Origin: an uncultured Clostridium sp.
GTDB taxonomy: Bacteria > Bacillota > Clostridia > TANB77 > CAG-508
Reading direction: 5' to 3'
Assembly (NCBI GenBank): GCA_902462295.1
Contig: CABQAZ010000002.1
Location: 66,151 to 130,150, forward strand
DNA: 64,000 nt
A program made the position numbers. This document shows, piece by piece, positions 45,501-60,500 of the stretch; the first letter of the stretch is position 1, and each line of letters opens with the position of its first letter.

Positions 45501-48500
45501 TGCCTTATCACTTATTAATATTATTCCTATAAAGAATATTATACTTATACATAACTTTTTTAATTTGTTCACATTAACTCTCCTATTCCTTTAATATTAT
45601 TTGTATCATCAAATACATATCCATTGAATCTATTTTTCCATCTGTATTTAAATCTATACTTTTCTTTTGATTTTCATCTAACTGAATATTTCCTAGTATA
45701 TATTGTATTATATAATACATATCCATTGAATCTACTTTTCCATCTCCAGTAATATCACCATTTGCTGTATTTGTATTATTATCTGGCTGGCTTGGTGTTT
45801 CTTCATTTACAGGAACTAAATATAATTTATATGTTGCTTCTGAATCATAAGTCTGTCTAGCAGCATATCCTTTAGTTCCATCAGCTTTCATAACATAATC
45901 CCAATAAGTTCCATCAACTTTGTCTGTTGCCTTAACTAATCTTGTAACAATTTCATCTTTATAAACACTTGCTATTTTATTTGCTGATTTTTTAGGTTCA
46001 CTTCTTAAGTATAACGAATTTGTTACATTAACCTTTACCAAATCAGTAGTTGTTGGTAGATTAGATGAAGATGTTGAAGGTCTTCCTGCTACTGATGTTG
46101 GCATATTTTTATATAAAGGTATTATAAAAGTATATTCTGCGTCAACAGAACCAACACTTTCAAAAGTTTTCCTTAAAGTTTGCCCCTCATTTTGTGCAGC
46201 TAAAATATTTTGCATATATTGATGCCAATACAAATTCCCATCTGAATTTTCAACATCAAATTTTTGAAAATATAATGTATCTTGTCCTCTAGAAATATAA
46301 CTTTGAACAATTATTTCAGTTCCACCTGTAATTGAGCTTTCTAATGAAGTCCACCCATATGATTGTGCTCTTTTTAACCCATTTAAAATAACATTTTCTT
46401 TTCCACTTCCACTTGCACCTATATTGAACACATTATAGTAACCTACATATTGCCCATTATATCCTTTTCCCTCTGATAATGTTGAACCGTTTTTTCCTTG
46501 TTCTTGTAAAATTCTTGCAACTATATAATATGCATTAACATCGTATTTTTTTGCAGATTCCATAATTGTATTTATATATGATTCATTATTCAAAAATGTA
46601 CCATTAACCATTTTTCTTATTGTTTGAACATTACAGTCACTATATGATAATTGCATAAATTGAAATACATCTGAATAATTTGTGGAATTTCTTGGGTCAA
46701 TCATATATGCTATTGCAGATTCTGATGCACAATGCCAGTTTCCACTATCATATGTTTTACCTGTTCCACATGCCTTACAAATCCATTCTCCATCATATTT
46801 GCTATTATTAGCTGGAACTAAATTTCTTGGAGAACTTCCATGTCCTACATATTCATTTGCAATAACGTCATTCCATTCAATGTCTGTATATAATATCTTA
46901 AAATTCCAGTTTGGATGTTGATTTTTTAGCGTTTGTATCATTTCTTTTATTTGTGGATATTGATTTGAATTAATTGAATTAATATCTGTAGTTGTTGTTT
47001 GATTTATTGCATAAGATTTATTTCCACAGATTAGACTTATAATTATATATGTAATCATTAATATAAAAATTATTAATGTTTTTCTAACGTGTTTTTTCAT
47101 TTCTTACACCTCTTTTGTTAATCTATTTTTTTCATCTTTTTCTTGTATTTTTCAACATTAGTATATCATTCTTCTTCCTTTTTAGTCAACCTTGGACAGC
47201 ATTTTTTTTATTACATTTGTGTTACAAACAATTTTATGTTATAATGAAAAAGAAAAAATGCACCTCTGGGACCGGGTATTTTCGGTGCATTTTATTTTTT
47301 GCCCCGAAAATACCCGGTCCCAGAGGTGCAATCTTTATATAAAAAGGAGCTTATAATGATAGAATTATTGTCACCTGTTGGTGATTTTGAATGTTTAAAA
47401 TCTGCTGTACAAAATGGTGCAGACACAGTATATTTTGGTGCAAGTTCTTTTAGTGCAAGAGCATTCGCATCTAATTTTGATGATAAAAATTTAGAAAAAG
47501 CAATTACATATGCAAGAATCAGAGGAGTAAAAACAAATTTAACTCTAAATACACTAATAAAAAATGATGAAATGTCTGAAGCTATTGAATTAGCACGAAA
47601 AGCTTATAATTATGGTATTTCTGCAATAATTGTTCAGGATTTAGGCCTAGCACGTTATTTAATAAAAAATTTTCCTGGATTAGCTGTCCATGCTAGTACA
47701 CAATTAACTGTTCATAATTTAGATGGTGTATTAAAATTGCAAGAAATGGGGTTTTCACGTGTTGTACTTTCTCGTGAGCTATCTTTAAATGAAATTGAAT
47801 ATATTTGTAAAAATTCAAATGTAGAAATTGAAGTATTTGTTCATGGTGCTTTATGTATTTCATATTCAGGACAATGCTTATTTTCAAGTATGATTGGAGG
47901 ACGTTCTGGAAATCGTGGTAAATGTGCTCAACCCTGCCGACTTCCTTATGAATTAATTTCTACACAATCACCAAATATTTCATGCAGTCAAAACTTATCT
48001 TATTCCTCACTTGAGCATGGTTATCTATTAAGTCCACGTGACTTATGTGGTTTAGATTACTTACCTGAACTTATAAAATCTGGTATTACTTGTTTAAAAA
48101 TAGAGGGTAGAATGAAAACTCCTGAATATGTAGGTACAGTTACAAGAATTTACCGTAAATATCTAGATTTAGCCTTATCTAATCCATCATCTTACAAAAT
48201 AGATAACCAAGATAAACAAGATTTATTACAAGTATTTAATCGTGGTGGATTTTCAGATGGTCATCTAAGTTCAACACCTAACAAAAACTTAGTTTATCCA
48301 AAGAAATCTAATAATATGGGATTATTTCTTGGAACAATTTCTAATTTTAATACTAACAAAGGATATATATCTTTTACAACTTCTAATCCTATATCTATTG
48401 GTGATAAAATTGGAATTGAAAACAAAAAAAATGAAACATCTTTATATACAATCTCCGAATTAATGATTAATAATAAAAATGTTCCTCACGCCTTTGCTGG

Positions 48501-57500: not shown

Positions 57501-60500
57501 AGTGTTAGCATACTATCTTTTTCAAAACCTTTTGAGCAAATTACAATCGGCTGATTTGTTACATATTGTTTATATTCTTTAACAATATTCCTTGTAAATT
57601 TTGATGGTGTAACATGTATTATAAACTCAGACCCATTAATTGCTTCTTCATATGATGTTGTACATTGTATACCATCTGGTATTACTACATTAGGTAAAAA
57701 TTTGCATTTCTTTTCATTATTTATTAAATCTTTTTCTTCTTCTGAAAATGACCAAATTTTTATTTTATTTCCTAATTTTGCTAGATGAATTGCAAGTGCA
57801 ACTCCCCAACTTCCACTTCCTATTATAGCTATATTTCTCATCTTTTTCTTCCTTTCGTATTTCTATTTAATTTTTAAAACTAATTTTATTCTCTGTTCCA
57901 TTTAAAATTCTTTTTATATTACTTCTATGATTAAACGCAACAATCAATGCCAAAATCACACTATAAACAAAATATTTACTTCCATCTGATACTGTATAAT
58001 TTGTATTAATAAATATTGTTAATACTGGAAATAAAATTGCTGCACCCATAGAACCCATTGAAACCATTCTTGTTAATACTATTAAAACTAAAGCAAAAAC
58101 TAAACAAATTAAACCTATTTTCCAATTAGTCATTAACAACACTCCAAGAGATGTTGCTACACCTTTTCCTCCTTTAAATCCAAAAAATACTGGAAAAGTA
58201 TGTCCTACAACTACAAGAATTCCTGCTATTTGTACTAATAATGATTTATCAGAATTTTTTGAAATTACTCCAACTAGAATTGCAAATAATATTGCAACTA
58301 CCCCTTTTAATGCATCACATAACAAAGTTAACACCGCTGCTTTTTTTCCAACAGCTCTTAACATATTCGTTGCACCTGCATTTCCACTTCCTTTTTCTCT
58401 TACATCAAATCCTGCCATTTTTTTACTTATCAATACTGAAAAACTTATGCTTCCTATTAAATAAGCAACTATTCCTACTATTATATATGTTGCCATATCT
58501 ATCTACTCCTTTCTTTTGCACCTTTGGAACCGGGTATTTTAGGTTCCTTTTTTATTTTTCCCCTCTGGGACCGGGTATTTTAAGTCCCATTTTTGCACAC
58601 TTTAACTATTTATCTGCTTTTTCTCTTGCAATTATTCTGATTGGTGTCCCCTCTAATCCGAATTCTCTCCTTATTTGATTCACCAAATACCTCTCATATG
58701 AAAAATGGAATAATTGTTTACTGTTTACAAATATTACAAATGTTGGTGGTTTTGTACTTACTTGTGTACCATATAATATTTTTAGACGTCTACCTTTATC
58801 TGTTGGTGGTTGAACAACTGCTATTGCTTCATTTATTACCTGATTTAATACAGATGTTGATATTCTCATTGCATTTTGTTCTGCTACATTATTTATCATT
58901 GTAAATAGTTTGTCCACTCTCTGCCCTGTTTTTGCTGATATGAAGATTATTGGTGCATATGATAAATATGATAATTTGTTGTATACTTCTTTTCTATATT
59001 TTTCTAATGTTCCTGTTTCTTTTTCATATTCATCCCATTTGTTTACAACAATAATTATTCCTTTTCCCGCTTCATGTGCTTCTCCTGCTATTTTTGCATC
59101 TTGGTCTGTTACTCCCTCTAGTGCGTCTATCATCATTAAACATACATCTGCTCTTTCTATTGCAAGTAGTGTTCTCATTATACTAAATTTCTCTATTGAT
59201 TCTGTTACTTTACTTTTTCTTCTAATTCCTGCTGTATCTATTAATACATATTTACCATATTTATTTTCGTATTCAGTGTCTATTGCATCTCTTGTAGTTC
59301 CTGCTATTGAACTTACTATTGTTCTATTTTCTCCTAATATTTTATTTATTAATGAAGACTTTCCTACATTTGGTTTTCCTATAACTGCAACTTTTATTCT
59401 GTCGTCTTCATCTTCTCCATCTTTCTTTTCTGGAAATTTTTCATATATTGCATCTAATACATCGCCTATTCCTAAAGCATTTGCTGCTGATATAGGATAT
59501 GGCTCTCCTATTCCTAAATTGTAAAATTCATAAATTTCATTTTTATCTTTGCTCATATTATCAGCTTTGTTACATACTAATACTACTGGCTTCTTAGATT
59601 TTTTTATCATTAATGCTATTTCTTGGTCTACAGCAGTTACTCCTTGTCTTATGTCTGTTAAAAATATTATTACATCTGCTATTTCTATTGCTATATGTGC
59701 TTGCTCTCTCATTTGAGATATTATAATATCATCTGATTCTGGCTCAATTCCTGCTGTATCTACTACTGTAAAGCTTCTTCCTCTCCAATTAGTTTCCGCA
59801 TATACTCTATCTCTTGTTACACCTGGTGTGTCTTCAACTATTGATATTCTGCTTCCTACTATATAATTGAAAAATGTCGATTTTCCTACATTTGGTTTTC
59901 CTATAATTGCTACTGTTGGTTTTCCCATCTCGTCCCCTGCCTTTCTCTTTTTTTCAGTTATATTTTACTATTTTCATCGCAAAATATCAAGAGTTTTGCT
60001 ATTTTTTCTTTTAAACTGACCAATAATTACCCATAAAAATATACAAATTAAAAATATTGCAATATTTTTAAAATAATATACAGCAATACTACTAATTATG
60101 GTTAAGATGGTTATTGTTATAAATGAAATTTTTCCTATTATATAGTCTGATTTTTCTTTTCCTAATTCTATGTATATAAGACTTTTTATTATTCTTCCAC
60201 CATCTAATGGATATAATGGAATTAAATTAAAAATTAATATCAGTATGTTTGAGTAAACTACTTCTTGCATTGAAATATTGGGAATATCTATATATGTAAA
60301 TACTATTGCCAATATAAAACTAGTAATTGGTCCTGCCAACGCAATAGCTATTTTTTTTAATTCTATAATATTTCCGTTTTTTATTTTTTTATTAAAATCT
60401 AGAGTATTTGCTTTAAATGATGATGATAATCCACATGGCATAATCTCTATTTTTTCTAATTTCATTTTTAATAGTAATCCAGCAATAATATGTCCCATTT

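Follow-up and report, generated by a model that had tools for sequence, protein, structure and literature searches.

A dispersed REP/REPIN-like repeat family in a species of gut Clostridia and the Y1 transposase gene that probably maintains it

Long palindromes set in the gaps between ordinary genes raise the question of what made them and what keeps them there. The question is posed here by a 64,000-nt stretch of DNA from an uncultured Clostridium sp. (contig CABQAZ010000002.1, hereafter the window), in which a unit of 27 nt recurs at four sites around the genes for a U32 peptidase, dxs, an M23 peptidase, plsY and der. A first-pass annotation assigned these sites to elements of the repetitive extragenic palindrome (REP) or bacterial interspersed mosaic element (BIME) type. 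In our reading, held with a probability of roughly 0.85, all four are members of a species-specific family resembling REPs and REPINs (REP doublets forming hairpins), which owes its origin and upkeep to a single chromosomal HUH/Y1 transposase of the RAYT (REP-associated tyrosine transposase)/TnpA_REP kind that is encoded outside the window. The transposase probably falls in the branch known as TIRYT or subclass 2.1. To our knowledge, work on REP/REPIN-RAYT systems has dealt almost exclusively with Proteobacteria. The kind of system is known, but neither its occurrence in this host group nor its sequence has been described before.

The core of the unit, GGGACCGGGTATTTT, occurs eight times in the window at up to two mismatches, compared with 0.04 occurrences expected from shuffled sequences (0 of 100 shuffles reached eight), and a profile built from 64 unit variants recovered the same eight units across the whole 64 kb and nothing else. 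The four sites are present as first described, three of them as inverted pairs and the fourth as a direct pair (Table 1). Folding was computed as single-stranded DNA, with z-scores taken against shuffles. The inverted pairs gave stems of 27 bp at site 1 (-37.7 kcal/mol, z -13.6), 27 bp at site 2 (-35.4 kcal/mol, z -12.3) and 26 bp at site 3 (-42.0 kcal/mol, z -10.8), the 27-nt arms being separated by 18, 18 and 52 nt, respectively, in agreement with the stems of 26-27 bp and loops of 18-52 nt in the original description. Each of the two direct units at site 4 closes its own hairpin of 6 bp, as had also been proposed, though the fold of this site is weak (-9.1 kcal/mol). The variable head positions (TGCACnTnT) match between both arms of each doublet. 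Two boundary details required correction: the contact between one arm and the TAG of the M23 gene stands, as an overlap of a single base, and the arm placed 27 nt before a start codon is in fact 25 nt from it. The spurious open reading frames (ORFs) with shared peptides that had been noticed at these sites are indeed translations of the repeat, which reads as CTSGTGYFR...PKIPGPR and, in another frame, as LPLKYPVP. All eight units fall inside 11.3 kb of the window (the 47000-59000 region), and the remaining 53 kb contains none.

The motif is not confined to these sites. A pattern scan of metagenome contigs matched 19 low-GC contigs, 17 of which came from one gut assembly, OJNH01; this assembly contains a contig 99.2% identical to window positions 49840-58807, so that the genome-wide family anticipated at first pass is found on about 17 further low-GC contigs of an assembly that also carries the window region. 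OJNH01 holds 49 units in 26 clusters over ~158 kb, a count that is a lower bound and in which some matches at contig ends may represent one site. The consensus of 64 distinct 45-mers is sharp, ttttGC[A/C]C[C/G/T]T[C/T]TGGGACCGGGTATTTT[A/C]GG[G/T][G/T]C[A/C]atttt, with the head TTTTGCACCTCT, and GTAG and GTGG occur nowhere in the unit. Nothing relevant resembling the units was found in plasmid, phage or viral-contig searches, and the terminal inverted repeat of a known insertion sequence, which had been considered as a possible match, did not emerge among the plasmid or phage records. An exact-pattern scan of 185,579 species-representative genomes returned 18 single chance matches in unrelated taxa. 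No Rfam family was matched at its gathering score across the whole window, or at a relaxed E-value across 47-59 kb, where only generic microRNA-precursor hairpin models appeared below threshold; a search of open-access text likewise turned up neither a report of this consensus nor one of a REP-RAYT system from gut Clostridia. The initial impression that the consensus belongs to no described family was borne out within Rfam and open-access text.

Units are found in recurrent arrangements. Short head-to-head doublets measure ~72 nt (inner gap 24-25 nt); long head-to-head doublets measure ~105 nt (inner gap 57-60 nt) and carry a degenerate third unit in the loop; direct arrays have a period of 41-44 nt (near 42); and single units form a third class beside doublets and direct arrays. 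The 3' tail takes several forms, each able to pair with upstream sequence: GGTGCA with the head TGCACC, GGGGCA with the head TGCCCC, GGTTCC (itself followed by a T run) with GGGACC or GGAACC, and GTCCCA with TGGGAC. The third unit in the loop of site 3, GAACCAGGTTTTTGAAGTAC, agrees with the consensus unit at 14 of 21 positions when the preceding A is counted and the alignment is made by eye; this second unit type also adjoins arrays elsewhere, for example as AGAAACCGAGTATTTTGTGTGCA beside the transposase gene described below. The transposase contig carries five clusters in 14 kb, and the family appears to be regionally clustered.

The earlier statement that copies are strictly intergenic holds in the window and fails elsewhere in the species, where copies in OJNH01 lie in frame inside two genes. 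A gene for an AddA-like helicase-nuclease (locus L044, 4838-4891) contains two units with a period of 39 nt, equal to 13 codons, that encode FPQKYPVPEVQTEFPRKYPVPEVPK, and the ATPase domain of a histidine kinase (locus L061, 4623-4637) contains one that encodes KLPLKYPVPEVQN. Orthologues were compared for one of these genes, the histidine kinase: those with 69-80% identity lack eight residues exactly at the unit, and closer orthologues hold a decayed version of it. Judged from this alignment, the gap is the clearest sign of insertion.

A gene of the RAYT type was also found, as the first-pass annotation had suggested might be the case. It lies outside the window. In locus L043 (10058-10843, minus strand), an ORF of 261 aa is bracketed by a '++' cluster and a '---' cluster of units, and the flanks read in loci L043, L067 and L068 all have '+' units on the 5' side of the gene and '-' units on the 3' side. 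The same gene, at 98% identity and with the same flanking units, is present in two other samples, and one of these loci, L068, comes from the same sample as a window-like dxs region (L021). The gene lies between yunB and nuoE-like/hydrogenase genes in the window species, and one transposase locus was seen per sample, the counts being from metagenome contigs. Many homologues of the gene occur on contigs of ~1 kb. The encoded protein matches Pfam PF01797 (Y1_Tnp) at 37.1 bits (cut-off 23), and all 38 homologues compared keep H60-V-H62 and Y119xxxN123P124 unchanged. Fold comparison placed it closest to structure 4er8, giving it a RAYT fold, and residues 140-257 are predicted to form a helical extension (pLDDT ~80-90). 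The C-terminal part gave only faint matches to Pfam HTH_7, HTH_28 and HTH_19, in a few of the 38 homologues, and a Pfam search with the C-terminal 122 residues found no credible domain. Against PDB sequences, the profile search was empty and the single-sequence search returned spurious casein-kinase matches to the low-complexity C-terminal part. A genome-wide family together with a RAYT-fold Y1 transposase flanked by inverted arrays of the same unit agrees with the REP/BIME-type assignment made at the outset.

The order yunB, transposase gene, nuoE-like gene is kept in five related species, with identities of 72, 62, 62, 61 and 59%, and the repeats beside the gene change from species to species. 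At 72% identity, the gene is flanked on both sides by CATTTGGGACCGGGTATTTTTTG arrays, with 21 units in 14 kb; at 62%, it is flanked by that species' own unit, TGCACATTTGGGACCGGTTCTGTTTTGCTCAC; and the species at 59-61% carry GGACCGGGTACA units, with GGGGACAGGTACATTTTTT and GGACCGGGTACAAAAT lying 3' of the gene and in neighbouring gaps. Flanks were read in three related species; two have units on both sides of the gene and the third on the 3' side only, and their species-specific variants share an ACC(N)GGT core. In loci L078-L081, from two sister species at 59-61%, the gene (6001-6777) is inverted in place between the same nuoE-like and yunB neighbours, with units on the 3' side only, which looks like an inversion between flanking inverted arrays. 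A dxs region from a 62% species (L030) overlaps the transposase contig at 99.5% identity, and the dxs-region repeats and the gene are thereby physically linked in that species, ~30 kb apart. In the same locus (5961-6410), the spoIIAA ORF runs into a three-unit array that fills the spoIIAA/spoIIAB junction and adds ~32 residues (149 aa, compared with 117 aa in the window species); what had been taken for a 550-bp insertion between inverted arrays in L030 proved to be spoIIAA itself lying between two arrays. The association of gene and repeat holds in the window species and in the three related species with flanks read, and gene and repeat vary together between species.

The sites persist, and their content turns over. 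Between strains, site 2 has a short loop, or an inverted loop with a 14-nt duplication of the unit head, or a long loop, and arrays near the transposase gene differ by one unit. Mismatches per 27 nt average 1.0 within a doublet and 3.1 between sites (permutation p ~1e-4). Across species, the same gaps are filled by each species' own unit: der/plsY, M23/dxs and the region upstream of U32, with dxs/U32 in one species. We calculate that, with ~13 gaps available, four of four shared gaps would arise by chance with a probability of 1/715. Two readings offer themselves: rewriting of old sites, or a preference for these gaps as targets. The 14-nt head duplication (GCACNTCTGGGACC repeated, then GGGTATTTT) is seen at two unrelated sites (L021 11890-11925, L022 3016-3050 and L067 ~8585-8612), and a sister species has runs of GGGACATTT. 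Such duplications may mark the point at which an enzyme cuts and rejoins, or may reflect slippage; our guess, from the two independent cases, is that a cut would fall just 3' of GGGACC.

Orientation is also biased. Of 19 clusters made up of single units or direct arrays, 16 have the top strand of the unit on the C-rich strand, and where the flanking genes are co-directional, the unit is antisense to them in 8 of 10 cases. Antisense arrays were likewise counted in related species (5 of 6 in L030 and 6 of 7 in L070), although these counts are not all independent, because some sites are common to several species. On the top strand the hairpin precedes a T run, so that a copy in sense orientation would look like a terminator; the window species has two such copies, at places where termination is harmless or its effect unclear. 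A replication-strand bias is known for IS608; at nearly all loci here, gene direction goes together with GC skew, so that causes in transcription and in the replication strand are not separable.

Several observations weigh against attributing the sites to this transposase or to a REP-like family. The best and only NCBIfam match of the protein, REP_Tyr_transpos, scored 57.8 bits, below its cut-off of 80, and canonical REPs are defined by a 5' GT[AG]G head that is missing from the units. A lone unit forms only a weak hairpin (z -1.7), and none of the units was called a terminator in a scan for consensus promoters and terminators, which showed no enrichment. The window genome was not found in the species-representative collection, and the unit count comes from a metagenome assembly and not from one closed genome; similarly, window and transposase are linked through shared samples, identical repeats and sister-species synteny and not through one contig. 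No whole-site presence/absence polymorphism was seen among ~10 strain contigs with 99-100% identical Dxs, all of which carry the four sites. Cleavage and transposition by this enzyme are proposed by analogy.

Three other origins were considered. The doublets could be miniature inverted-repeat transposable elements (MITEs) of the Correia/ERIC kind, derived from an insertion sequence with a DDE transposase whose terminal inverted repeats survive as the 27-nt arms. A length of 72-105 nt, near-perfect terminal inverted repeats, an internal segment shared by the long form and the position of copies next to gene starts would all suit such elements, but doublets are no more common than single units and direct arrays, none of the four sites shows a target-site duplication (direct repeats are absent from the borders of sites 1-3), plasmid and phage records gave 0 matches, and the sole transposase found beside the units is a Y1/HUH enzyme. 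This is the least probable of the three alternatives. Scarcely more credible is the view that the units are host regulatory sites before plsY, dxs and U32, whether an operator for a dimeric ACC(N)GGT-binding protein or a leader RNA motif, and that the Y1 gene is incidental. The occupation of the same gaps in three species, the location of units directly before ribosome-binding sites in one orientation and the conserved short palindromic core are what one would expect of regulatory sites. Copies within a genome are nevertheless near-identical over 27-32 nt, a degree of likeness far above that of binding sites, and they also lie between convergent genes and in frame within genes; the flanked genes have no common function, unit number differs between strains, Rfam yielded 0 families, and in all four species with flanks read, the unit beside the Y1 gene is the one particular to that species.

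The remaining alternative, very unlikely if the least so of the three, holds that host recombination and slippage at palindromes are sufficient to spread and homogenize the repeats, and that the Y1 gene is a domesticated gene with another job that stands among them by chance. Loop inversion, homogenization of arms and array expansion could indeed arise by template switching and unequal recombination, and Group 1 RAYTs have been published as single-copy, co-opted genes with modestly frequent flanking 16-mers (PMC5581495; bioRxiv 10.1101/2021.07.10.451892). Slippage makes no new sites, however, unlike the process that left in-frame copies in the addA-like and histidine kinase genes, and it does not account for the recurrence of bracketing by inverted units or for a unit that changes whenever the protein changes. 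A family created and maintained by the Y1 transposase remains our preferred explanation.

How the transposase would act is suggested by the enzymes of E. coli and of IS200/IS605 elements. By this analogy, it would bind the hairpin of a unit or doublet in single-stranded DNA at the replication fork and cut and rejoin next to that hairpin, with new copies landing preferentially at existing ones. Such a preference would explain clusters, arrays and turnover in place, and we infer that a Y1 cleavage site within the repeat itself could give rise to both the clusters and the in-place renewal. Effects on transcripts can be framed in the same conditional way. As RNA, the doublets would form stems of 26-27 bp in 5' leaders or just behind stop codons and could serve there as 3'-end barriers or RNase III sites, and single units, having a hairpin and a T run on one strand only, would on that account be kept in the near-constant antisense orientation to flanking genes. 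An outward promoter within the unit (TTGCAC...TATTTT/TAAAAT) was proposed and dropped, as its spacing of 13-14 nt does not fit.

A broader proposal, which we regard as tentative and rather less likely to be right than wrong, is that a long transposase of the TIRYT/Group 1/subclass 2.1 type sustains a dense, living REPIN-like population across a clade of gut Clostridia, in which gaps stay occupied down to ~60% protein identity while the unit is replaced in concert in each species. If this were true, new copies would be written into old sites. The system would in any case allow one to ask whether the long, so far repeat-poor branch of RAYTs drives dispersed repeats and whether repeats are renewed in place, and the sister species, with their matched pairs of protein and repeat, offer a natural series for following the joint change of a Y1 enzyme and the DNA it targets. 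There are practical consequences as well: the units break metagenome assemblies and create spurious ORFs, add in-frame peptides (KYPVPEV) to real proteins, and place 27-bp hairpins directly after the stops of dxs, U32 and M23, which is relevant to annotation and expression studies.

Coordinates of the repeats and neighbouring genes are collected in Table 1; the gene context was taken from identical metagenome contigs with Pfam marks. The dxs start given there yields a protein of 621 aa, identical to P0001 and database proteins, and the longest dxs ORF (49880-51823, 647 aa) begins 26 codons too early. The window has a G+C content of 27%, and its Dxs is identical to proteins of human-gut metagenome contigs and metagenome-assembled genomes. 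By their sequences, the neighbouring spoIIAA/AB, sigF, spoIID, dockerin and cadherin-like genes mark the host as a spore-forming member of the Clostridia.

Table 1. Repeat sites, units and adjacent genes in the window
Feature	Position	Strand	Composition and context
Core GGGACCGGGTATTTT	47268, 49810, 51835, 58526, 58567	+	58526 with 1 mismatch
Core GGGACCGGGTATTTT	47307, 49849, 51908	-	
Site 1, short inverted doublet, REPIN-like	47259-47330		Arms 47259-47285(+) and 47304-47330(-), both TGCACCTCTGGGACCGGGTATTTTCGG; divergent gap between dockerin and U32 peptidase genes; ends 25 nt before U32 ATG (47356)
Site 2, short inverted doublet	49801-49872		Arms 49801-49827(+) and 49846-49872(-), both TGCACGTCTGGGACCGGGTATTTTAGG; between convergent stop codons of U32 (49794) and dxs (49880)
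Site 3, long inverted doublet	51826-51931		Arms 51826-51852(+) and 51905-51931(-), 26-bp stem; 1-nt overlap with TAG of M23 gene (51930); ~80 nt upstream of dxs start (51745)
Site 3 loop, degenerate third unit	51878-51897	+	GAACCAGGTTTTTGAAGTAC; alignment by eye
Site 4, unit a	58517-58551	+	TGCACCTTTGGAACCGGGTATTTTAGGTTCC, then T run; hairpin GGAACC/GGTTCC; starts 20 nt from plsY start (58496); antisense to plsY and der
Site 4, unit b	58558-58590	+	CCCTCTGGGACCGGGTATTTTAAGTCCCA; hairpin TGGGAC/GTCCCA; ends ~15 nt from der stop (58606)
Dockerin protein gene	45583-47100	-	
U32 peptidase gene	47356-49794	+	
dxs	49880-51745	-	
M23 peptidase gene	51930-52787	-	
plsY	57867-58496	-	
der	58606-59928	-	

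Two other repeats were noted in the window. At 8788-8974, between two minus-strand genes, lies an unrelated element of 187 nt with inverted ends of 25 bp (TAGAAATACTTTAAATATAAGCTTT/AAAGCTTATATCTAAAGTATTTCTA) and an inner inverted repeat of 39 nt, for which Rfam gave no match. Two copies with 83-88% identity are found on L033 (~2417-2565 and 4917-5100), and similar sequence was recognized by eye twice in a sister-species locus (L029), once in the loop of the REP-like dxs/U32 doublet. Nested long inverted repeats occupy 25662-25884, comprising 60-nt arms at 73% complementarity and pairs of 36 and 30 nt.

Among known systems, the HUH/Y1 catalytic core is shared with the IS200/IS605 insertion sequences (IS608 and ISDra2), which are themselves characterized by subterminal hairpins recognized in single-stranded DNA and by replication-strand bias. 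The present gene differs in being fixed in synteny across species at one locus per sample, in having the class 2 YxxxNP motif (Y---NP being the signature of all TnpA_REP-like, or class 2, proteins; PMC6006769) and in the dispersal of repeats without the gene. Correia elements of Neisseria and other MITEs resemble the doublets in their length of 70-150 nt, long inverted ends, proximity to genes and potential for long RNA hairpins; here, however, target duplications (TA or other) are absent, no parent element with a DDE transposase was found, and single and tandem units are present. The REP-RAYT systems of E. coli and Pseudomonas (REPtron, BIME and REPIN; Nunvar 2010; Bertels and Rainey 2011, PMC3116915; Ton-Hoang 2012; 4er8) offer more extensive parallels: a syntenic Y1 gene with its own flanking repeats, short extragenic repeats, inverted doublets with co-evolving arms, clusters that are mosaics of more than one unit type, a consensus particular to each species, and a protein fold that is closest to 4er8. 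As in REPINs, two inverted units at a short fixed distance evolve as one entity. The units differ from those of E. coli and Pseudomonas in lacking a 5' GTAG or GTGG head, in being poor palindromes when alone, with a hairpin closed through variable tails, and in commonly forming direct arrays (period ~42 nt); the protein is ~100 residues longer, and the host is a low-GC Firmicute, whereas theirs are Proteobacteria.

The closest published relatives are found among the long RAYTs. Group 1 RAYTs have been reported in Clostridia, with flanking 16-mers occurring 12 times, compared with 57 and 140 times for Groups 2 and 3 (Bertels et al. 2017, PMC5581495), and Groups 1, 4 and 5 have been treated as co-opted single-copy genes (bioRxiv 10.1101/2021.07.10.451892). 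Group 1 is equivalent to subclass 2.1, whose members are long and end in a helix-turn-helix-like extension at the C terminus (Quentin et al. 2018, PMC6006769). No REP-like hairpins were found near subclass 2.1 genes, which probably correspond to the TIRYTs described by Di Nocera et al. (PMC6006769). The dense dispersed family described here departs from the account of Quentin et al. (PMC6006769). TIRYT genes are flanked by inverted repeats, often with GGGGWSAS, some of which form moderately abundant families, dimers or clusters (Di Nocera et al. 2013, PMC3733652). The likeness to these TIRtrons extends to a RAYT-like Y1 gene bracketed by inverted non-GTAG repeats, to repeats in moderately abundant families, dimers or clusters, and to a long protein with a C-terminal extension (here helical). 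GGGGWSAS is matched at 8 of 8 positions in GGGGACAG, a unit beside the gene in two sister species, and at 7 of 8 in each of GGGGACAT and GGGGACCG, further sister-species units beside the gene, whereas TGGGACCG of the window species matches at 6 of 8. The original REP/BIME label therefore stands insofar as the system belongs to the REP-RAYT world and requires qualification as to its type: since units without a GT[AG]G head go together here with a long protein extended at its C terminus, the nearest published label is TIRtron/TIRYT and not E. coli-type REPtron, and it is the TIRtron description of Di Nocera et al. that the present system fits best.

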